DNA of 64,000 nucleotides, taken from positions 63,141 to 127,140 of the forward strand of contig JBMNJH010000012.1 of assembly GCA_050951565.1 (NCBI GenBank). The letters run 5' to 3'. Below the pieces are notes generated by a model. That model did not search any database. It was not told the DNA's origin and saw nothing but the letters and a program-made list of their open reading frames with translations. The position numbers and the translations under genes were made by a program. Position 1 is the stretch's first letter; every line of letters starts with the position of its first letter. This document shows, piece after piece, positions 45,611 through 64,000 of this stretch. This DNA comes from Peptococcia bacterium. GTDB taxonomy: Bacteria > Bacillota > Peptococcia > DRI-13 > DTU073.

Positions 45611-53278
<7,668 letters not shown>

Positions 53279-53289
53279 AACAAGGGGGT

Positions 53290-54066
53290 GTGAAGTTGGA
53301 TATTTTTCTTGCTGTCATCATCGTAATCCTGCTCATGAACAGCTTCTTGTTCCTGGTTTTTAAAAGGATCGCGGTGAATGTGGGCAAGCATGCGCAGAAT
53401 TACGTGGTGCGGCAGCTCTCGGCATACGATGACCTGATTAAGAAAAAAGCACAAAAACTGCATGAATTAAATGAAGCCATCAATAACGAACAAGCCCAGA
53501 TGGCGAAGGAGCCTGTCCAAGTCAAGGAAAGCGTTCCGAAACCGATTAATCCCTTTGCTTTTTTGCCCGGAAATTATCTGGACACCAGTTTTTTAGGCAA
53601 CTATCGCAAGGTGCGGGAGTTTTTCCACTTTGATCATCGACTATGTATTAAAAATGTGCTTGAACTGTACGACACCGAGCAAGAGGACATCAAGTCTTTA
53701 CTGAGCAGGCAGATTTTAGTCCGCTTTTCCCTGGAAAACCGCTTCGGCATTGCGACCATGGAGGAGCAAGACCAATTAGCAGTTTTTAAGGAAATGTTGA
53801 ATAACGAAGAACAAAGCCTTTTGGAGGAATATTGCGCTTCCCATCCCTCGTTTGATTGTATAAGCTTTTTTGACTGGCTGGAAGTAGTATCTTTTCGTTC
53901 TAATCCTGAGGTGGTGATCCGAACCGGCGAAAGCAAAGAAAACCTGACCTGGTTAAACGACCGGATTAGGATGGAGTACGACAGCAGTATTTGCGAAGGC
54001 ATTCAGGTTGTTTTGTGGAATAAGCTTTATGATTTTTCGATACAGAAAAGGGAGTTATGCGGATGA
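53290..54066 (+). CDS. stator-like protein: N-terminal TM helix plus coiled coil (subunit b-like), with a C-terminal region showing a delta/OSCP-like motif
   Basis: TM helix IFLAVIIVILLMNSFLFLVF, then the charged helix YDDLIKKKAQKLHELNEAINNEQAQMAKE. The C-terminus EYDSSICEGIQVVLWNKLYDFSIQKREL resembles the delta C-terminus (..D.sliGG..v..gd..iD.S....L). The start is ambiguous (GTG 53290 or TTG 53296). Confidence 0.45.
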   Translation: MKLDIFLAVIIVILLMNSFLFLVFKRIAVNVGKHAQNYVVRQLSAYDDLIKKKAQKLHELNEAINNEQAQMAKEPVQVKESVPKPINPFAFLPGNYLDTSFLGNYRKVREFFHFDHRLCIKNVLELYDTEQEDIKSLLSRQILVRFSLENRFGIATMEEQDQLAVFKEMLNNEEQSLLEEYCASHPSFDCISFFDWLEVVSFRSNPEVVIRTGESKENLTWLNDRIRMEYDSSICEGIQVVLWNKLYDFSIQKRELCG

Positions 54067-55384
54067 ACGAACATTTAAATGATGTTATTCAGAAAAAAAT
54101 CGATACAATCAAACAGAAGAAAAACATTTACGAGTTGGGCCTTGTGACCAATGTCCATGACTATATCCTCGAAGTAAGTGGCCTGGAAAACGCGGCCTTT
54201 TTCGAGCACGTGGTGATTGGCGACAAGGCCGAAGGCTATGTCAACAATATCGGACGTAATACGGTGACCGTAGTGCTGGCCAAAAGAAACGCTCCGGTTT
54301 TTGTGGGCGACAAGGTGGCTGCGACCGGCGAGCAGTTTTGCGCTTTCTATTCCCCCGACTCCATCGGCCGGATTGTGGACATGTTTGGTCAGGATGTGAT
54401 GCGGGACCAGTTTTTCAGCAACCGGGAAAAAATCCCCATTGAAACGCCCCCGATCCCGATTATGGACCGGACCAGTGTGAATCGTCCCCTTTATACGGGG
54501 ATTACGGGGATTGATTTGCTTTATCCCATTGGGAAAGGGCAGCGTCAGTTGATTATCGGCGATAAGAAAACCGGGAAGACGCAAATCGCCCTTGATGCCA
54601 TCGTCAATCAACGACAGGACGAAGTGCTGTGTATCTATATTGCCATCGGAAAAACTAAAAAAGAAGTCAAAGAGGTTTACAGCGAGTTGCTTTCCCATGG
54701 GGCGATGGAGTACACGATTATTCTGGCGGCCTTCCAGGATGAATGTGCCCCGGTCTTGTGCAACACGCCCAGTGTGGGGGTTACCATTGCCGAGCATTAT
54801 ATGCTGCAAGGGATGGATGTGCTGGTGGTGATTGACGATTTGAAACAGCATGCCGACAATTACCGGGAAATCAGCCTGCTTTCCGGAAGAGTGCCTGGCC
54901 GGGACGCTTATCCGGCGGATATCTTTTTCGCCCATGCCAGTTTGCTGGAAAAAGGCTGCCAGCATAAGGACGGCGGTTCGATTACGATCCTACCGATTAC
55001 GGAAACGAAAGGCGGGGACATTACCGATTACATCTCCACCAACATTATTTCCATTACCGACGGGCAGATCGTGCTTTCCGCCAAAAACTTCGAAAAAGGG
55101 CAAAAACCGGCCATTAACTATGGCTTGTCCGTCTCCCGTTTAGGTGGCGCGGTGCAGACGAAAGAACTTAAGAAGTTAGGTTCCGTGGTGCGCCGGGAAC
55201 TGTTGTCTTATTTAGAATCACGGGCAGTTTTTGAACTGGCCAATACCGAAGAAATGAGCGAAGACTTGCGGCAGAAGATGGGAGTGGGCAGTGAAATCCT
55301 GAAGCGGATGAACCAGTACAAGTTTGAAGCCCGCGCGCCCGAAGAAATGGTCCAGCTCTTTCAAGAATTGGTGGTGGTTCCTGA

Positions 55385-55388
<4 letters not shown>
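54063..55388 (+). CDS. F1 ATPase alpha-subunit homologue (short, ~441 aa)
   Basis: GIDLLYPIGKGQRQLIIGDKKTGKT (Walker A), VLVVIDDLKQHADNYREISLL..PGRDAYPADIF, and PAINYGLSVSRLGG (Arg finger). The ATG overlaps the upstream stop (ATGA). It lacks about 60 C-terminal aa compared with typical alpha subunits. Confidence 0.85.
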
Positions 55389-57528
<2,140 letters not shown>

Positions 57529-57561: not shown

Positions 57562-57903
57562 TTGGAAAACGAGGGAAGGACGGTTGAATCTACGGAAAAA
57601 GCAATCCAGCAGGAGAGCGACAGTAACGGCGCCGGCATGGAAGTGCGCATTTCCAGTTTCGAAAAAGGGCTGGAAGTGTACCAGAATGTGCTCTTTATCC
57701 GGGTGACCAGCGAGAAATACAACCTCCTTATCATGGAGGATTACATGCCCATCATCGGCAAAGTGGAGGGCAGTGTTACTTTTCTGGCGGAAGATCAGGA
57801 ACATACGCTGGAAAACATCGAAGGTTTTTTCTATCACAAACATAATGTTTTTTCGTTGTTAATAAAGGAGAGTTCCCATGTGGACGAAGATCATGCAGAC
57901 TGA
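57562..57903 (+). CDS. F1 epsilon-subunit-like protein (beta-sandwich domain only, no C-terminal helical hairpin)
   Basis: aaggagga RBS 8 nt before TTG 57562 (ATG 57637 is the alternative). MEVRISSFEKGLEVYQNVLFIRVTSEKYNLLIMEDYMPIIGKVEGSVTF fits the epsilon N-domain pattern (..v.tpeg..gilpgH.P.i..l..G.v.). Confidence 0.5.
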   Translation: MENEGRTVESTEKAIQQESDSNGAGMEVRISSFEKGLEVYQNVLFIRVTSEKYNLLIMEDYMPIIGKVEGSVTFLAEDQEHTLENIEGFFYHKHNVFSLLIKESSHVDEDHAD

Positions 57904-58462
57904 GGTACCATGGACCAATGTGATGCAGGCGCTTCTGGAATTTAAGTGGCTGGTTATGGTCACGGTGGGTGTCGGTTTGCTGGTGGGCATCATCGGCTTA
58001 TTGCTGTCCCGCAATTTGCGCTGGCATCAGAAACGGGTGAAGGTCCTGGGTGTTTTTCTTAATTTAAGCGCCCGGGATAATCTCCTGCTGTGTATTGCTT
58101 TGTCCCGGTGCCTGTTTGTGGTAAGCGCGGTCGCTTTTTGCGTGGGAATCGATACGACGCAGCTTTGTTTATTCATTATGCTGTGTATTTTATATAACCT
58201 TTTAGCCTTTCGTTTTTCCGTTTTTTTATTCGATTTGTTCAACAGCGCGGTTATCTGTGCCGCGTTACTGGTGGGCAACATTCTGACTGGCTTTTTGCAG
58301 GAGGTACGTTTCGACTGGCGCACGATTACCGTGTATGTTTTGTTGGCCATTTTTATCAGCGTTTATTCCGCCTTTTTCTTCTTGCGGGATGTGGCGCGGA
58401 TCGCGCAGCGGGAACCGAAGCGCAAGGGAATCAAGAACGAAGAGGAACAAGAAGCAACCTAA
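57878..58462 (+). CDS. 5-TM membrane protein, tentative Fo subunit a analogue lacking the conserved Arg
   Basis: aaggag RBS; overlaps the epsilon-like gene by 26 nt. About five hydrophobic helices. The TM4 segment AALLVGNILTGF resembles the subunit-a motif LRLFGNxxxG with Leu at the Arg position. Confidence 0.35.
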   Translation: MWTKIMQTEVPWTNVMQALLEFKWLVMVTVGVGLLVGIIGLLLSRNLRWHQKRVKVLGVFLNLSARDNLLLCIALSRCLFVVSAVAFCVGIDTTQLCLFIMLCILYNLLAFRFSVFLFDLFNSAVICAALLVGNILTGFLQEVRFDWRTITVYVLLAIFISVYSAFFFLRDVARIAQREPKRKGIKNEEEQEAT

Positions 58463-58484: not shown

Positions 58485-59213
58485 ATGAACGCGATGCGGG
58501 TGCAAGGGCAAAAAAGAAGATTAAACAAGGACAGATTATTAATTATCGCGATTGTGCTCATTTGTGCGGGGCTGCTCTCCGCCGTGGCCGTATATATTTT
58601 CTTTTTGGATAACCGGTTGATTAAAGAAGATTTGTACCTTTATGATATCGGTTTTCGTTTTGATTATCCCGGCCCGTCGCGGATTCAGAAAACGGATGAA
58701 GGAATGGTCCTGAAAAACAACGGGAAAGAGCTGTTACTGCAAACAAGTCCGCTTTTTTACAAGGAAGAGGAACGCATCTTCCTGCCGACGGTCATGGTGG
58801 CTTGTTTGCCGTCCGAGCGCAAGTTTGGCCGGGTAGATTACTTTACGGAAGTTTACCGGGATCAAGACGGAATTTACGCGCAACTGGGGCGGCAAAGCAT
58901 TCCCTTAGGAAAAGGCTTTTTGCATGATGGCAAGGACCTGTATATCTTCCTGGACAACACCACGGTCAAATGGCAGGACAAGGTGGTGCGCCTGAAACCT
59001 TTTTCCTACGCCATCGTGGTTTACAACCAGCGTTTGGAGATTTATTCGGCGAAAGGCGGCGAATGTGTTTTAGAAGATACGGGTGCCTGCAAGGTAGTGG
59101 CGGAAGCGGAGAGTGGGTACCGGATCGATTTGGGAACCGATATCCTGTACCGGGCCGACGGCAATGAACAAATGTTGTTTGCCCAGCCTTCGACGCTGAA
59201 AGAGTTGAAGTAA
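58485..59213 (+). CDS. 243-aa N-terminally anchored protein consisting only of the shared juxtamembrane module
   Basis: gggagacg RBS, a basic N-terminus and TM helix LLIIAIVLICAGLLSAVAVYIFFL. The track ORF 58335.. overlaps the upstream gene, so the internal ATG is used. Confidence 0.65.
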   Translation: MNAMRVQGQKRRLNKDRLLIIAIVLICAGLLSAVAVYIFFLDNRLIKEDLYLYDIGFRFDYPGPSRIQKTDEGMVLKNNGKELLLQTSPLFYKEEERIFLPTVMVACLPSERKFGRVDYFTEVYRDQDGIYAQLGRQSIPLGKGFLHDGKDLYIFLDNTTVKWQDKVVRLKPFSYAIVVYNQRLEIYSAKGGECVLEDTGACKVVAEAESGYRIDLGTDILYRADGNEQMLFAQPSTLKELK

Positions 59214-59227
59214 GGAGGTGTCTCGGT

Positions 59228-62200
59228 TTGAAGAAGATTGTTGCTTTAGCAGTGGTTATTCTGGCGGTTTTAGTTTTTGCAAAATATTACCAGCTCCAAA
59301 CAGTGGGGATTTTGGAGAGCAATACATATGCGGTTACGGACAACCAGATCACGCAGAGTTTGTTCTCCGACCAGGTTCCCCCCGAAAAGGCGGTGCTGGA
59401 ACCAACGGTGGCGGAGTCCCTGACTCCGCTCTACGAGTTGGGCGGCAATCTTTTTCTCGGGGAGCGGAAAAATAAGCTGAATAACGCGTATCCCCTCTTT
59501 GTCAATGACGCCGTGGCCCTCATGAACGTCAACAACAGCGCAAAGCTCATCACCGAAGATTTTGAAAGAAAGAACACCTATTACGGCCTGTACGTCAGTG
59601 ACGGCCTCTCCTTTAATGCGGATAAACAGCGGGCGGATGCTGAGACCTTTATCCTGCTGGAGTTGGCCAATAAGCTGTATATCAATGCCCGGCCCATGGA
59701 AGTACATACCATTTGCGGCGATGTCCTGATCCCGATGAACGGGGTTGTCAATTTTCAGGAAGATGCTATTCGTTATTACACTTTGGAGAAAGGGAAGTTC
59801 CACTACAAGGAAATCCCGAGAGTGGACGAGCAGACCTGGGTGCGTTTTGCCGGCAAAAAATACCCCTATTATGACTTTTTAATCGGCCTGGGCAAGCTTA
59901 AAGAACCTTCCGGGCAGGCAAGACCTGCTCTTCAGGAAGAGGAAGCCCCGCCTGAAATCCCGGAGCGGGAGGAGGAAGAAGGAAAAGCGCAGGAGGAGCC
60001 GGTGGAGCCGGCCGAATCTCCGGTGCTGAAGCCGGAAGCGCCTGAAAAAACCAAAGCAAGCTTCCGGAAGCCGCGGCTTTCGATGACCGATTTCCGGGTC
60101 AATTCGATCCAAAGGACCGCGGAGACGACCCTAAGCATCCACGACCCCTCAGGGGTCCTGACCGGTGCGATTCAGGTGATCATCCGGGACGAAAAAGGTA
60201 ATGCGCAAAGTTGGACCTTTACGAACTATGCCGAAGCGCAAAAAGGGATTTTGCAGCCTGTGGCCTTCTTTGATAACCTGGAAAACGGGATGACCTATAC
60301 CGCATACGGGACATATAGCTATATAGACGCCGACGGGCAAAAACAGACGGAGTTCTTTGGCTGGAAGACCTTCCAGGTGGAAGAGCGGCTAATCTATTTC
60401 TTTGATCTGCTGGAGATCAAAGAAGAGCCGGAGCCGGAACCGGAGTTTGTCCCCGTCAAGCCGCAGGTTAGCTGTGAGCCTTTTGTGGCATCGATTTATG
60501 ATTTGCATTCCACGTTGACCATTCACGAACGGGGCAGCCTGGTGACCGGCGGCATCCGTTTTGAGGTCTATCATGATGAGCGCATGTATATGCGCAAAAC
60601 GGTTTCGGCAAGTGGGGAATTAACCCTCGGTCCTTTGCCGCCCGCCACGGAATTTAAAATCATCGGGTACATTACCTACTTAAATGAATACAAAATAAAG
60701 GTGGAGGAAAAGTTTTTCGAACAGACCATTGCCACACTTCCGCTGGATCAGTTGGAGCCCATGTCCTTGTCCTTCCAAAACGGCAAGATCTTTTATGACC
60801 GCATTCAAATTGTGGACTTGTGTTTTGTCGATGACCCTGCGGACAGCAACCGGAAAATCGGCGCCGGTACCATTCCCTATGTGGCGAAAATTGCCGTCCT
60901 GATTGACAATAATACTTACGGCTTAAAGCCGGCCCAAATCAGCGCCATGCAGGAGGGCGGCAAAGTAGAGTATGAAACCCCGGCGGTATTGCGTTCCAAT
61001 CAGAAATACCGGTACAGAATTGTCTGTTTGGACCGGTTTGGTAACGAGTTGCCATTGACGGAGCCGGCGGAAGGGGAGACTCATACCTGTAAAGCGCCGC
61101 CGAAAGCGATTATCCGGTTGACCACCAATGAAGTGGCCAATACGGAGCTTACGGTCGAGATTGAAAACAAGGACCATGTGGAAGCGCAGAATTACCGGAT
61201 TGCCTTGTATGATATCAATGATCATTTAATCCACACGGTCAGAAGGACAGAAGGCGGGGAGGATTCCGAAGCCTCGACCCACCATGACCTGCCGGAGGAC
61301 GGCGGTAAAATCACCTTTACGAATCTGAGTGCCGGTGCGGCCTATACGGCCGTGGTCTATGCCGATTATGACCTGGACAACGGTGAAGGGATACAGGAAA
61401 ACATGGAAATCGGGCGGATTCGTTTTACGACCCTGTCCATTTCCGCGCTGGGTTATGCCATTTTTACAACGGAAGTAACGGAACTGACCGATCAGGAGGC
61501 CACCTTAACCATTTCTCTCGACAAAAACCGGACCAATCCCCAATTGCAGTTTTTACTGGATAAGGTTACGGTGCTCATTACCGGCCCCGATGGTGAGGAA
61601 ATTATGACCGTATCCCTGACGGAAGAGGAACTGGCCCGGTTCGTGGCCGGCGACGGGGAACCTTTCCAAATCGAACTAGAGAACCTGCTGAGTTCCACCG
61701 AATATGGAATTACTATTCTGGCGGAGGTAGAGCAAGGCGGGGAGATCCATGATATTAAAACGTCCAATAGCATCGATGGTTTTAAGACCCTCAAGACCGA
61801 GCCGGAGGTTGTGATCAGTTCCTATTTTTCCATTTCCAATGCCATTGAGCTGTATGACGTGATCATCAACGATCCGGACGGGGCGATTCTGAGCCATGTT
61901 AACCTGCTGGTAACGGACAGTTACGGCCGGGTGGTGGGTTCGCGCATCCTCCAGGCGAATACCCTTTATGAGACGCTCGTTTTCCCGAAACTGATTAAAA
62001 ACGAGATGTATACCTTTACCTTTGTGGCCACCGAGTTTAACAAAGGGTATGACTATACCACTTTTGAGACCCTGTATGAGCTTAAACCGGTTTATCAGAT
62101 TATCAATGAAAACAAGCTGGCCGGTGAAATCGGGCTGCAGAGCCTTGACGAGATTACCGGTGACAATGACCATTACCTGGCGAAACTGCGGGTACAAATC

Positions 62201-62488
62201 AGTGATGAGACCCAGTTGCTGCTTGAAGAGCCATACTATACCATCAAGGTATTTAAGGAAGAAGAGCAGGTTGATGCTTTGGTCTACGATATTGAGCCTG
62301 CCGGTTCCGATGTGGATCATATTTTCACCTATCAGGTTGATGCGATGAGCGAATATCGTCTGGAATTATGGGTAAAGGTGCGTGACCATGAGTTCAAGCT
62401 GGATGATACATCTTTTACCACGGAGCAACCCATTATTGGGCTTGCCACGTTCAGGATTTTAACAAGTCAAAACGAATACGAGCGGTAA
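59228..62488 (+). CDS. giant (at least 1086 aa) N-terminally anchored surface protein: juxtamembrane module, Pro/Glu-rich linker and FN3-like array. It probably continues beyond a frameshift at ~62470
   Basis: aaggagg RBS 9 nt before the TTG. TM helix IVALAVVILAVLVFA. Linker QEEEAPPEIPEREEEEGKAQEEPVEPAESPVLKPEAPEK. FN3-like signatures LENGMTYTAYGTYSY, NLSAGAAYTAVVYADY, LLSSTEYGITILAEV. Confidence 0.75.
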   Translation: MKKIVALAVVILAVLVFAKYYQLQTVGILESNTYAVTDNQITQSLFSDQVPPEKAVLEPTVAESLTPLYELGGNLFLGERKNKLNNAYPLFVNDAVALMNVNNSAKLITEDFERKNTYYGLYVSDGLSFNADKQRADAETFILLELANKLYINARPMEVHTICGDVLIPMNGVVNFQEDAIRYYTLEKGKFHYKEIPRVDEQTWVRFAGKKYPYYDFLIGLGKLKEPSGQARPALQEEEAPPEIPEREEEEGKAQEEPVEPAESPVLKPEAPEKTKASFRKPRLSMTDFRVNSIQRTAETTLSIHDPSGVLTGAIQVIIRDEKGNAQSWTFTNYAEAQKGILQPVAFFDNLENGMTYTAYGTYSYIDADGQKQTEFFGWKTFQVEERLIYFFDLLEIKEEPEPEPEFVPVKPQVSCEPFVASIYDLHSTLTIHERGSLVTGGIRFEVYHDERMYMRKTVSASGELTLGPLPPATEFKIIGYITYLNEYKIKVEEKFFEQTIATLPLDQLEPMSLSFQNGKIFYDRIQIVDLCFVDDPADSNRKIGAGTIPYVAKIAVLIDNNTYGLKPAQISAMQEGGKVEYETPAVLRSNQKYRYRIVCLDRFGNELPLTEPAEGETHTCKAPPKAIIRLTTNEVANTELTVEIENKDHVEAQNYRIALYDINDHLIHTVRRTEGGEDSEASTHHDLPEDGGKITFTNLSAGAAYTAVVYADYDLDNGEGIQENMEIGRIRFTTLSISALGYAIFTTEVTELTDQEATLTISLDKNRTNPQLQFLLDKVTVLITGPDGEEIMTVSLTEEELARFVAGDGEPFQIELENLLSSTEYGITILAEVEQGGEIHDIKTSNSIDGFKTLKTEPEVVISSYFSISNAIELYDVIINDPDGAILSHVNLLVTDSYGRVVGSRILQANTLYETLVFPKLIKNEMYTFTFVATEFNKGYDYTTFETLYELKPVYQIINENKLAGEIGLQSLDEITGDNDHYLAKLRVQISDETQLLLEEPYYTIKVFKEEEQVDALVYDIEPAGSDVDHIFTYQVDAMSEYRLELWVKVRDHEFKLDDTSFTTEQPIIGLATFRILTSQNEYER

Positions 62489-64000
62489 ATTTATTGTGCT
62501 GAATGATATTGATGTGACGTCAGGGCCGCTTCTTGGGTCGGCTGACTCTTTTAACGGGGAGTTGGATTTTCAGGGTTATACGCTGCATAATAGCAAGGGT
62601 ACTTACTTATTTCGCATTTGGGTAAAAACGGGTATCATTAAAAATATGGTACTTGATGTGACGATCCCGTATACTGATCCGATGCGTTACCGGGCTTTAT
62701 TGCTTATGTTTCCAGGGGACGGATGGAGAATATTATGGTGAACGTAAAAGGTTGTACCGAGTTATCTGCATAATGACTGGGGACTTTTTTGTCCATAACA
62801 GTGCGACCGGCGTGATTGAAAACTTTGTGGTCAATCTGGAAAGTCCGCTTTATGTTTGGAGAAATTTGGGTGTGTACGCATATAACAGCGGGATGGTACG
62901 AAACGGTTATGTGTATGGTAGCGATATTGAACTGCCTGATATTGAGGTGGATGGGGGCTATACTGCCTCTAATTTTGGCGGGATTGTGGGCAGAAACGAA
63001 ACAGCCGGACGGGTGGAAAATGTCTTTTCTCTGGTCAATATCCGTACCGGCACACTGGTCACGCCTAGCAAGAACAATTTTGGCATGATTGTGCGGCGTA
63101 ACAATGGGACAGTGAAGGGTGCTTTTACCACGGGAGAGGTCTATTTCGGAGGGGCAAATGACCTGCGCTATGGCCCGGCGGTAGGCCGTCAGGGCGGGAT
63201 GCTGCAGACTGATGCTTACTACATTTCGGAAAGACTCTACCTATACGAATACATATAACGCGAAAGTAAGCAAGGAAACGCTCTATGATCCATTGTGGCA
63301 CAAGGCCGTCCTGGGGGATATGTTTGACACGGAGACACTGGTCTTAATGGGTTATTACCCCCAATTAAAGCTGCCCGATTGTATGCCGGCCCAGCCTTAT
63401 CTGCCCTTGCCGGAGTTAAATGTTGCCGATGCGGTGGATCTGGCCAGCGTAATGGTCGAAGAGCAGTACGAGGATTACGCTATCGCCCGGTTTACCTTTA
63501 ATAACCCCTATGGCTATACGATTAAGAGCGTGGGGGTCGAATACCTCAATGCCACCATTATCCCGGACAGCCAGGAGGATAAAGATGGACTCACCCGTGT
63601 GCTGGTGCGCTTGGATAACCCCACTAAGTTTTATTCCAGCTACAATGTCCTTTATTTCGGATACGGTGTTTCCGCTAGCAGTCCAACGACTTTGCGCCAC
63701 TATCAAAAAGGAGAACGTCTGGTCAATGCAGAGTTTTTTAAGCCAATTCGCACAATTGAAGATTGGGCATCTATAGAGGATAGCTTAGAGCAGAACTATC
63801 GTTTGAAAGAGGATTTGGATTTTAATAATACTCCGCCGCAATTAATCCGCATTGGGGAAAATGATGCTAATCAATTTACCGGCAAACTGGATGGCGGTAT
63901 TTATGACAAAAACATGAAATGTATTGGGATGCATACTATTCGTAATCTTGATTTATCCATTGGCTTAGGAGGAGTGATCACTAATTTAAAAGGTTCGGTT
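62463..64000 (+). pseudogene. GLUG-type repeat (beta-helix-like) surface-protein coding region broken by at least 4 frame changes; 3' end open at the window edge
   Basis: Coding-like translation moves from frame 3 (62463-62741) to frame 2 (62678-62773), frame 1 (62662-63258) and frame 2 (63185-64000, no stop). Motifs: SFNGELDFQGYTLHN, GFIAYVSRGRMENIMV, NFGGIVGRNETAGRVENVF, QFTGKLDGG..HTIRNLDL, GLGGVITNL. Confidence 0.65.

Follow-up and report, generated by a model that had tools for sequence, protein, structure and literature searches.

A five-helix membrane protein encoded in an F1-like gene cluster of walled anaerobes and its relation to subunit a

The gene cluster and its F1-like subunits

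The 64,000-nt stretch of DNA analysed here (the window) carries 11 consecutive cluster genes on the forward strand, in which F1-like subunits and a c-like protein are flanked on both sides by genes for surface proteins:

45647..51100, + strand: giant surface protein 1 (1817 aa), whose gene opens the conserved cluster
51127..52923, + strand: 598-aa protein, the second gene of the cluster, with an N-terminal transmembrane (TM) helix, a GGxGG Gly-rich tract and an acidic tail
53033..53278, + strand: c-like protein (81 aa), with the GxGxGxG motif of helix 1 and the GRNPE loop kept
53290..54066, + strand: 258-aa protein whose N-terminal TM helix is followed by a helical region and a globular C-terminal part
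54057..55388, + strand: F1 alpha-like subunit (443 aa), with Walker A sequence GDKKTGKT and Arg-finger context SVSRLG
55385..56176, + strand: F1 gamma-like subunit (263 aa)
56173..57528, + strand: F1 beta-like subunit (451 aa), carrying EELSEEN, with catalytic motifs intact
57562..57903, + strand: small soluble protein in the epsilon position (113 aa), overlapping the 5-TM gene
57878..58462, + strand: 5-TM protein (194 aa), a family-specific membrane subunit and the subject of this report
58485..59213, + strand: 242-aa protein that is basic at the N-terminus and crosses the membrane once, with ~190 aa in an extracytoplasmic domain
59228..64000, + strand, running past the end of the window: giant surface protein 3, with fn3 and GLUG motifs

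An identical 11-gene order was found in 13/13 loci sampled across the 5-TM family, which come from Clostridia/Peptococcia and from one Coriobacteriales MAG: two surface proteins, the c-like protein, the 258-aa single-TM protein, alpha, gamma and beta, then the epsilon-position protein, the 5-TM protein, the 242-aa single-pass protein and a giant surface protein, whose orthologues are 3000–3950 aa long. Loci in which the identity of the 5-TM protein to that of the window falls to 19–25% still keep this order. An exhaustive profile search assigned 254 representative clusters to the 5-TM family at E ≤ 1e-3, and a tblastn search of PLSDB with the c-like and 5-TM proteins gave no match. The 5-TM ORF has a Shine-Dalgarno sequence (AAGGAG) 7 nt 5′ of its ATG, and it overlaps the upstream ORF by 26 nt in the window; the same gene pair overlaps by 4–17 nt in 8 of 9 other loci, and hence in 9/10 with the window included. 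We conclude from these sequence data that the 5-TM gene is real and conserved, that its family is fast-evolving, and that its translation is coupled to that of the epsilon-position gene. We further conclude that its product is a core part of a previously undescribed, rotary-motor-like cluster that is predicted to be ATP-driven.

The alpha-, beta- and gamma-like proteins read as clear F1 homologues, and the catalytic motifs of alpha and beta are intact. The alpha-like subunit matches the alpha profile from position 9 at its N-terminus, and about 70 C-terminal profile positions are absent. The c-like protein matches PF00137 (E = 3.9e-8); a 197-aa ORF at 52685–53278 was rejected for this gene as an over-extension. 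Helix 2 of the c-like protein contains no Asp or Glu in 10/10 loci. Given that this carboxylate is missing, a ring of c-like subunits cannot bind H+ or Na+, and ion translocation is therefore not the business of this machine. Across loci in which the 5-TM protein is 19–70% identical, the identity of the c-like protein is 63–98%.

Similarity of the 113-aa protein to epsilon was detected neither by Pfam nor by PDB profile search nor by hhalign, and its best NCBIfam score was to NF009977 (E = 0.11). Thus, of the earlier description of the 5-TM gene as overlapping an epsilon-like gene, the overlap holds, whereas “epsilon-like” applies to the 113-aa protein by position and size only. Similarly, the 258-aa protein is a candidate for the peripheral stalk by virtue of its position; it has no b or delta similarity by Pfam, PDB profiles or small hh profiles of b, delta and b-delta. 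The best hh score for either of these two proteins was a non-significant 10% probability, to the C-terminus of delta. Because b, delta and epsilon similarity is lacking in both, the bookkeeping of stator and rotor parts rests on gene position. In all, four proteins of the cluster fall in no known family by Pfam, NCBIfam and profile searches.

Giant surface protein 1 combines an N-terminal TM anchor with a collagen-like triple-helix repeat and fn3-like repeats. The frame of giant surface protein 3 shifts several times between ~62.43 and ~63.24 kb of the window; the copy of the system found here may be decaying, or these shifts may be assembly errors.

Relation of the 5-TM protein to subunit a

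The first-pass annotation proposed that the 5-TM protein has about five TM helices and is an analogue of F-type subunit a in which the essential arginine is replaced by leucine. Hydropathy and an AF2 model agree on five TM helices. The model (pLDDT 89.7, pTM 0.80) was built from an alignment of 137 sequences; one built from seven close homologues reached a pLDDT of 52.7 and was discarded. It places helices at residues 23–45, 65–86, 93–109, 113–142 and 147–177, and after the first TM helix it has a short amphipathic one, in the first cytoplasmic loop, ahead of four further helices, of which TM4 and TM5 are 30 and 31 residues long. The positive-inside rule, applied to 145 homologues, gives an N-out/C-in topology. 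Conservation is highest in the TM4–TM5 hairpin (N122, L130, L136, Y139, L155, L156, F159, Y163 and Y166), and a polar cap at the outer face (H95, N134, E142 and D146) is also conserved. Conserved charges vary within the family, with residue 77 (Arg in the window) basic in 73% of members and residue 119 (Asp) acidic in 74%. A buried salt bridge between R77 and D119 was considered and dropped, since the two positions do not covary. R77 was also rejected as a displaced “a-arginine”: it lies in TM2, it is basic in only the stated share of members, and Q, E, W and G also occur there.

Canonical subunit a carries an invariant Arg (R210 in E. coli) in its penultimate TM helix, within the motif [ST]LxLRLFGNxxxG[EH]. 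Its fold sets a long, tilted aH5/aH6 hairpin within a horizontal four-helix bundle, and its gene lies directly upstream of that for c. The segment of the 5-TM protein that was likened to this motif, AALLVGNILTGF (residues 128–139), does lie within TM4, as had been stated. Placing its G133, N134 and G138 on E. coli G213, N214 and G218 puts L130 at the position of R210, such that the GNxxxG spacing with Leu in place of Arg holds for the window protein; it does not hold as a feature of the family. The full G-N-x3-G motif occurs in 17 of 145 family members (12%), essentially the window's own clade. Residue 130 is Leu in 106 members, Met in 15 and Ile in 13, and is Arg or Lys in 0/145. Across positions 119–130, basic residues are absent from the 145 members except for two Arg at position 119. 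By comparison, R210, N214 and Q252 are invariant in 19 real a-subunits. GN...G arises somewhere in 1.4% of composition-matched shuffles, so the resemblance is not beyond chance, in line with the earlier caution that it could be fortuitous. Given that position 130 is never Arg or Lys and that the motif is not a family feature, there is no trace of a “lost” arginine. The proposed co-degeneration of the ion path therefore stands on one side, the loss of the helix-2 carboxylate from the c-like protein in all 10 operons, and fails on the other.

Comparison with the PF00119 profile had been proposed beforehand as a check on the relationship, with a lack of similarity named as grounds for rejecting it, and it revealed no similarity at either the HMMER or the HH level. 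By hmmscan, neither the window protein nor a single one of 137 homologues matched PF00119 at E ≤ 1, and searches of all PDB chains with 5-TM family profiles returned no a-subunit at E ≤ 10. Since a search with E. coli AtpB yielded only Enterobacterales sequences of at least 79% identity, diverse a-subunits for hhalign were taken from PLSDB records. The alignment of 145 5-TM sequences scored a probability of 0.56% against 19 diverse a-subunits, 0.3% against a canonical-only set and 0.4% against an N-type-only set, which is the level seen against AtpI and AtpZ. As a positive control, N-type a aligned to canonical a with 100% probability (E = 2.6e-39), indicating that the test is able to detect a-subunits at ~25% identity. 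A Foldseek search of the PDB with the AF2 model found nothing at E < 0.001 and only generic four-helix bundles; a-subunit chains gave TM scores of 0.26–0.37 at E > 3, in a comparison of which helix tilt is not part.

Several features of the 5-TM protein do resemble subunit a. It is a polytopic protein of an F-type-like operon, its roughly five TM helices are oriented N-out/C-in, its first cytoplasmic loop contains an amphipathic helix, and conservation peaks in the hairpin made by its last two helices. The cluster otherwise follows a c-b/delta-alpha-gamma-beta-epsilon order in which no subunit a is seen: PF00119 matched no ORF of the window and no gene call in the 10 further loci with Pfam annotation, a set that excludes loci L005 and L006, which were inspected as ORF lists. 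The 5-TM protein, as the sole polytopic membrane protein of the cluster, is the sole candidate for the place beside a c-type ring, and, like subunit a, it is probably present once per complex, as its coupling to a single-copy gene suggests. These features, together with the GNILTG of the window protein, could be read as those of a true but degenerate subunit a homologue that lost its Arg together with the c carboxylate, with the GNxxxG of TM4 as a relic of aH5. However, the profile comparisons, the 12% occurrence of the full motif and the never-basic position 130 all argue against this reading. The 5-TM gene lies 3′ of the epsilon-position gene in 13/13 loci, rather than 5′ of c. The 5-TM protein, moreover, showed no specific fold similarity to subunit a in the Foldseek search and, unlike subunit a, has no conserved N/Q/E/H half-channel residues, its partner ring has no carboxylate, and it is fused to or paired with an extracytoplasmic domain. 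We regard descent from subunit a as highly improbable and close to refuted, and conclude that, as far as sequence comparison can detect, the 5-TM protein has no homology to subunit a. It may nonetheless stand where subunit a would, beside the ring but conducting no ions, an analogy reached by elimination.

Possible roles of the 5-TM protein

The extracytoplasmic domain in question belongs to the 242-aa single-pass protein encoded immediately downstream. In three representative clusters of the family (P0122, P0075 and P0134) the 5-TM protein and its partner are fused into one protein of 403–406 aa, whose partner part matches the product of 58485–59213 in the window with BLASTP E values of 1e-35 to 7e-50; one fused protein was seen in operon context, at locus L026. 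A polytopic protein with a single-pass partner is also the arrangement of a MotA/ExbB/TolQ-type stator. This was tried and rejected: the 5-TM protein matches neither PF01618 nor any other Pfam family, and in the window sequence the partner's TM helix, LLIIAIVLICAGLLSAVAVYIFFL, contains no Asp or Glu, whereas a conserved acidic residue would be expected there in such a stator. More broadly, no Pfam or NCBIfam family, transporter and secretion families included, matches the 5-TM protein above noise.

Our best reading of these data, to which we give somewhat less than an even chance, is of an ATP-driven F1-like motor working on surface proteins, with the 5-TM protein as its membrane base or adapter, which would conduct no ions. 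The machine would derive from an F-type ATPase, and the 5-TM protein would be a genuine, system-specific subunit of it: a bundle of four TM helices with one more at its N-terminal end, produced in step with the epsilon-position protein and acting as one unit with the 242-aa protein. Placed beside the c-like ring, it would take the place of subunit a but share neither its chemistry nor its ancestry. It would anchor the fixed parts of the motor, the extracytoplasmic domain of its partner would link these parts to the giant fn3/collagen-like surface proteins, and ATP hydrolysis would thereby be turned into mechanical work at the cell surface. We infer the contact with the ring, the stator rather than rotor role and the mechanical output. 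A point against this reading is that sequence change is far quicker in the 5-TM protein than in the c-like protein, which would not be expected if the two shared a tight functional interface.

Translational coupling to the epsilon-position protein would also fit attachment to the rotor, since epsilon is a rotor subunit of F1. The 5-TM bundle and its fused or adjacent extracytoplasmic partner would in that case act as a drive shaft, lodged within or upon the c-like ring, rotating with it and passing this rotation to the outside. A precedent comes from Voa1 and Ac45/ATP6AP1, whose TM helices lie inside V-ATPase c-rings and carry luminal domains; the fusion to an extracytoplasmic domain fits, and a ring that is strongly conserved yet blind to ions must do something mechanical. 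However, a bundle of five or six helices is bulky relative to the lumen of typical F-type rings, and the 258-aa protein with its N-terminal TM helix would still need a fixed membrane partner. We consider a transmission of this kind unlikely.

The 5-TM gene also adjoins, in all loci, the genes for the 242-aa protein and the 3000–3950-aa surface protein. This, and the conserved polar cap at the outer face, would suit a membrane anchor or an export or sorting factor for the giant surface proteins that is tied to the ATPase genes by co-regulation only. Overlap with the last gene on the ATPase side in 9/10 loci points the other way, as does the failure to match any transporter or secretion family, and such a role appears to us improbable.

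More widely, the cluster may represent a previously undescribed class of ion-uncoupled, F-type-derived rotary motors in walled anaerobes. ATP hydrolysis would spin a c-ring that lacks its carboxylate, the 5-TM protein and its fused or adjacent partner would transmit or react to torque across the membrane, and giant collagen/fn3 surface proteins would be moved or remodelled. We put this wider proposal forward as a rather doubtful one. Rotary F-type ATPases nearly always convert energy through ion coupling, and to our knowledge the only documented exceptions are the F1-like X0 motors of mycoplasmas, whose membrane sector and mechanism are still obscure. The telling detail in the present cluster is that a c-ring has been retained and strongly conserved, stripped of its ion site, and that it goes together with new membrane subunits and with giant surface proteins. 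For the use of torque, the obvious place to look is the 5-TM protein together with its 242-aa partner. If the proposal is true, the cluster would encode a new motility, adhesion or surface-conveyor machine, parallel to and independent of the gliding and MIB-MIP motors of mycoplasmas. For annotation, the 5-TM protein should not be named subunit a, and in metabolic reconstruction of these MAGs the c-like, alpha, beta and gamma genes should not count as an ATP synthase.

Comparison with known systems

Like an N-ATPase operon, the cluster adds a further F-type operon in which the genes are rearranged; unlike N-ATPases, which retain a bona fide subunit a and an ion-binding c, it has neither, and its alpha, beta and gamma all scored far under the alt_F1F0 cut-offs. 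In N-ATPase operons, small proteins of the AtpI/UncI and AtpZ/AtpR types come after epsilon. The 5-TM protein resembles these in being small and hydrophobic, encoded in an atp-type operon, quick to change in sequence and devoid of any invariant catalytic-looking residue, and it could accordingly be an assembly factor or chaperone for the c-like ring that stays outside the mature machine. It is, however, larger than AtpI or AtpZ, with five helices as against two to four, and it has no Pfam or NCBIfam match to AtpI/UncI (PF03899) or AtpZ/AtpR. By hhalign the family scored 0.4% against eight annotated subunit-I proteins and 1.4% against five AtpZ, the comparison profiles being small. The 5-TM gene occupies the same position in every locus sampled, and the extracytoplasmic fusion in three representative clusters is hard to reconcile with a ring chaperone, which we regard as very unlikely.

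The closest known systems are the F1-like X0 ATPases of mycoplasmas, although the membrane sector differs here. These include Type 2 (G1, the gliding motor of M. mobile) and Type 3 (required for MIB-MIP) enzymes and power surface machinery (PMC3369863, PMC12994834). Their clusters comprise seven genes, and the seven encoded proteins, as described, include one with 12 TM helices, a small cytoplasmic one and one that pairs a signal peptide with two TM helices at its C-terminus, but no c-type subunit (PMC12994834). The 2012 paper that defined the mycoplasma motors stated that other bacteria have no equivalent. Literature searches were directed at F1-like ATPases outside Mollicutes, at c subunits lacking the carboxylate and at F-type clusters associated with giant proteins, and nothing beyond the mycoplasma work came up.

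The cluster described here departs from the seven-gene architecture: its membrane parts are the c-like protein with two TM helices, the 5-TM protein and proteins that cross the membrane once, and the 5-TM protein is set apart from the mycoplasma 12-TM protein by described architecture. Whereas mycoplasma alpha has no N-terminal helix, the alpha-like subunit here matches its profile from near the start. In NCBIfam comparisons, the alpha-like subunit scored 427.3 bits against canonical alpha, higher than against MMOB1660 (381.8 bits; cut-off 600) or MSC_0619 (304.1 bits; cut-off 520), and the beta-like subunit scored 459.8 bits against canonical atpD, higher than against MSC_0618_beta (402.6 bits; cut-off 570) or MMOB1670 (384.8 bits; cut-off 850). 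The hosts are also different, being walled Clostridia/Peptococcia and Coriobacteriales rather than Mollicutes. In its general design, however, the cluster corresponds to F1-like X0: in each, non-Fo membrane proteins accompany a divergent F1 made up of alpha, beta, gamma and a small protein in the epsilon position, and large surface proteins are encoded alongside it or linked to it functionally. For both, conversion of ATP hydrolysis to mechanical work across the membrane has been proposed. A design comparable to F1-like X0 thus now appears outside Mollicutes and, if the machine works as proposed, it would be a second, independent system for the mechanical use of F1 torque across a membrane.

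A gene cluster built around an F1-like ATPase

Genomic context was sampled over the whole similarity range of the 5-TM protein family (5-TM identity to the window of 19-70%), and gene order was identical in 13 of 13 loci. The cluster reads as follows, with window coordinates where they apply and protein lengths as ranges across loci.

Genes of the conserved cluster
Gene 1, 45647-51100: giant protein, >1700-2050 aa
Gene 2, 51127-52923: protein of 420-680 aa
Gene 3, 53033-53278: c-like protein, 81-86 aa (81 aa in the window)
Gene 4, 53290-54066: protein of 246-258 aa (258 aa in the window)
Gene 5, 54057-55388: alpha (443 aa in the window)
Gene 6: gamma
Gene 7: beta
Gene 8, 57562-57903: small protein, 82-158 aa
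Gene 9, 57878-58462, plus strand: 5-TM protein (194 aa in the window)
Gene 10, 58485-59213: protein of 200-274 aa (242 aa in the window)
Gene 11, 59228-64000, plus strand: giant protein, 3000-3950 aa

Alpha and beta (PF00006 at 3e-73 and 3e-62) and gamma (PF00231 at 1e-22) show clear homology to F1 subunits, and all three fall under the curated cut-offs of every NCBIfam family, whether canonical, N-ATPase or mycoplasma (MSC_0618/0619, MMOB1660/1670). The alpha-like protein retains GDKKTGKT and SVSRLG, and the beta-like protein carries EELSEEN as a version of DELSEED; given that the catalytic motifs are kept in both, ATP hydrolysis is expected. The alpha-like protein matches positions 9-437 of the 507-position alpha profile, so that its C-terminal domain is about 70 residues short. 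For four cluster proteins, namely the 258-aa protein, which has a TM helix at its N-terminus, the small gene 8 protein, the 5-TM protein and the 242-aa protein, no family was detectable.

The c-like gene starts at 53033, and a 197-aa ORF at 52685-53278 is an over-extension of it into the upstream gene. Its product matches PF00137 (E 3.9e-8) and retains the GxGxGxG packing motif and the GRNPE loop. Helix 2 contains no Asp or Glu, in any alignment register, in all 10 loci compared (the window and related loci L001, L002, L005, L006, L008 and L025-L028). Among the non-F1 proteins of the cluster, the c-like one is by far the most conserved, with 63-98% identity between loci whose 5-TM identity is only 19-70%. 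The ring protein is under strong constraint, yet unable to carry H+ or Na+ in the canonical manner.

The first giant protein contains a collagen-type Gly-X-Y tract (Pfam Collagen, 1.4e-8), and the product of gene 2 contains a long GGxGGxGG tract and ends in a PEE-rich, very acidic tail; each has a TM anchor at the start. A trimeric collagen-like stalk adjoining a three-fold F1 would be suggestive. The downstream giant gene shows several frame changes at 62430-63240 (frame 3, then 1, 2, 3) relative to the intact 3084-aa orthologue in L006, and is split into ORFs 59228-62488, 62496-62741 and 62752-63258 plus further ORFs. These changes could be assembly error or real gene decay; the giant gene of L005 is also split, near its N-terminus.

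The 5-TM protein and its extracytoplasmic partner

The 5-TM ORF has an AAGGAG 7 nt upstream of its ATG and overlaps the preceding ORF by 26 nt; its start overlaps the stop of the upstream gene in 9 of 10 loci. The first-pass annotation was right about this overlap, but its description of the upstream gene as epsilon-like is only a positional label, no family being detectable for the product; the best match is NF009977 at E 0.11. At window positions 57878-57922, the N-terminus of the 5-TM protein is 10 codons longer than in all close homologues, whose start (MWTN...) corresponds to residue 11. The extra sequence begins MWTK, and the homologous start position reads PWTN instead; this resembles a short duplication in which the original ATG was lost.

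Hydropathy indicates five hydrophobic segments, and an AlphaFold2 model built with 137 homologues (pLDDT 89.7, pTM 0.80) places helices at 23-45, 65-86, 93-109, 113-142 and 147-177; the first loop contains a further helix, short and amphipathic (53-61). Across 145 homologues, Lys and Arg are abundant in loop 1 (mean 5.1), loop 3 and the C-tail (mean 6.4), but scarce at the N-terminus and in loops 2 and 4, which gives an N-out/C-in topology. Some homologues have long cytoplasmic C-terminal tails, such as the family representative P0066 (310 aa), in which a Lys-rich stretch is followed by Glu/Thr-rich repeats (ETEIKQ...); the short form in the window protein is KRKGIKNEEEQEAT.

A word-indexed search returned seven close relatives, all unnamed or labelled hypothetical, and an exhaustive profile search returned 254 representative clusters at E<=1e-3, nearly all of 165-200 aa. 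The protein occurs in two named MAGs (Peptococcia bacterium and Peptococcaceae bacterium), an identical NCBI sequence is labelled 'Clostridia bacterium', and a more divergent member was found in a Coriobacteriales MAG. The most conserved residues lie on TM4 and TM5 (N122, L130, L136, Y139, L155, L156, F159, Y163 and Y166), with position 139 being Tyr or Phe in 145 of 145 members. H95, N134, E142 and D146 form a polar cluster at the outer face.

Three family representatives of 403-406 aa (P0122, P0075 and P0134) combine the 5-TM protein and the following 242-aa partner in one polypeptide; their C-terminal halves match the product of 58485-59213 with BLASTP E-values of 1e-35 to 7e-50. One fusion was seen in operon context (10001-11212 of L026), and a 478-aa additional paralogue of the partner follows it. 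The partner has a basic N-terminus, a single TM helix and, at its C-terminus, a domain of about 190 aa. Since the C-terminus of the 5-TM protein is cytoplasmic, this domain lies outside the cell in the fusion. The two proteins thus very probably act as one membrane-spanning unit, with a domain exposed on the outside, the side of the giant proteins.

Relationship to subunit a

The first-pass annotation had asked whether the 5-TM protein is an analogue of subunit a with Leu in place of the essential Arg. The underlying sequence facts are correct: the ORF position, the five TM helices and the motif in TM4, where residues 128-139 read AALLVGNILTGF. Placing G133, N134 and G138 on E. coli G213, N214 and G218 puts L130 at the position of R210.

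The proposed ancestry did not survive profile comparison, which had been set beforehand as its test. The window 5-TM protein has no ATP-synt_A match at E<=1 in Pfam or NCBIfam, and none of 137 family members, each scanned singly, has one in Pfam. PF00119, the subunit a family, is likewise unmatched among the window ORFs and among the genes called and annotated with Pfam at 10 further loci (ORF lists only for L005 and L006). Profiles of 7 or 137 5-TM sequences, searched against all PDB chain sequences, which include a-subunits of at least a dozen organisms, retrieved zero a-subunits at E<=10. We also assembled 19 diverse a-subunits: canonical ones from E. coli and other Enterobacterales, Legionella, Staphylococcus, Bacillus, Enterococcus, Subdoligranulum and Rubrobacter, and six N-ATPase types, one of them archaeal. 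Aligned to this set with hhalign, the 145-sequence 5-TM alignment gave 0.56% probability, over a 22-column stretch confined to TM1, and it gave 0.3% and 0.4% against canonical-only and N-type-only profiles, equal to the noise level against AtpI (0.4%) and AtpZ (1.4%). In the positive control, N-type a (six sequences) aligned to canonical a with 100% probability (E 2.6e-39, 182 columns). Foldseek of the 5-TM model against the PDB returned nothing at E<0.001, and the a-subunit matches 8dbw_a, 6n2d_a and 9itu_T had TM-scores of 0.26-0.37 at E>3. We regard a true a homologue diverged beyond recognition as very improbable.

Nor is the motif a family feature. Gly occurs at G133 in 37, Asn at N134 in 77 and Gly at G138 in 56 of the 145 members; the complete G-N-x3-G is present in 17 and, among 13 loci, is confined to the close clade of the window. 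Position 130 is Leu, Met or Ile, with Arg or Lys in 0 of 145, whereas R210, N214 and Q252 are invariant across the 19 real a-subunits. GN...G arises somewhere in 1.4% of shuffles of the 5-TM protein. We conclude that the resemblance is fortuitous, a possibility that the annotation itself had raised. Judged by the condition that the annotation had given for its refutation, the degenerate-a reading does not hold. R77 was considered as a functional counterpart of the a-subunit arginine and also rejected: charged positions inside the helices are R77 (basic in 73%) and D119 (acidic in 74%), neither is invariant, and covariation was not found. Of the joint loss of an ion path that had been proposed, what stands is that the ring and the membrane protein paired with it both lack one; descent of the latter from subunit a does not.

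Proposed role and related systems

The cluster appears to encode an ATP-driven derivative of the F-type ATPase whose membrane sector no longer handles ions. The 5-TM gene encodes a core, family-specific membrane subunit. By elimination, its product would be the sole polytopic protein able to sit beside the ring, where it would hold the single-TM stalk candidate and so stand where subunit a stands, while sharing neither chemistry nor ancestry with it. Attachment of the 5-TM protein to the rotor, with rotation carried outward, is an unlikely alternative, and a function in assembling the ring is a still less probable one. Together with its extracytoplasmic partner, the 5-TM protein would connect the motor to the giant surface proteins, in which TM anchors at the N-terminus occur together with GLUG motifs, fn3-like repeats and a collagen triple-helix repeat. 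The same neighbours would suit an anchor or sorting factor for giant proteins, which we consider unlikely, to the same degree as rotor attachment. Placement beside the ring, with a link to the surface proteins through the partner, is our tentative preference, at somewhat under an even chance. Interest in the finding is moderate to high and rests mainly on the system, less on the a-subunit analogy.

Our literature searches, of incomplete coverage, turned up no account of such a system outside the mollicutes, which is absence of evidence only; as a variant on the theme of F1-like motors, the cluster is apparently undescribed. Among described systems, the mycoplasma F1-like X0 ATPases come closest. 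Their Type 2 is the gliding motor of M. mobile (PMC3369863, PMC12994834), and their Type 3, as shown in 2026, is needed by the MIB-MIP antibody-cleavage system (PMC12994834). The cluster shares with them a divergent F1, a membrane sector of unknown kind and effectors at the surface. The mycoplasma clusters comprise seven genes, including those for a 12-TM protein and a signal-peptide protein with two C-terminal TM helices (PMC12994834). A c-type subunit is not among the seven mycoplasma proteins in the 2026 paper (PMC12994834), whereas a c-like protein is present here, and the N-terminal helix is reportedly absent from mycoplasma Type 3 alpha (PMC12994834), whereas the alpha-like protein here aligns from position 9 of the profile.
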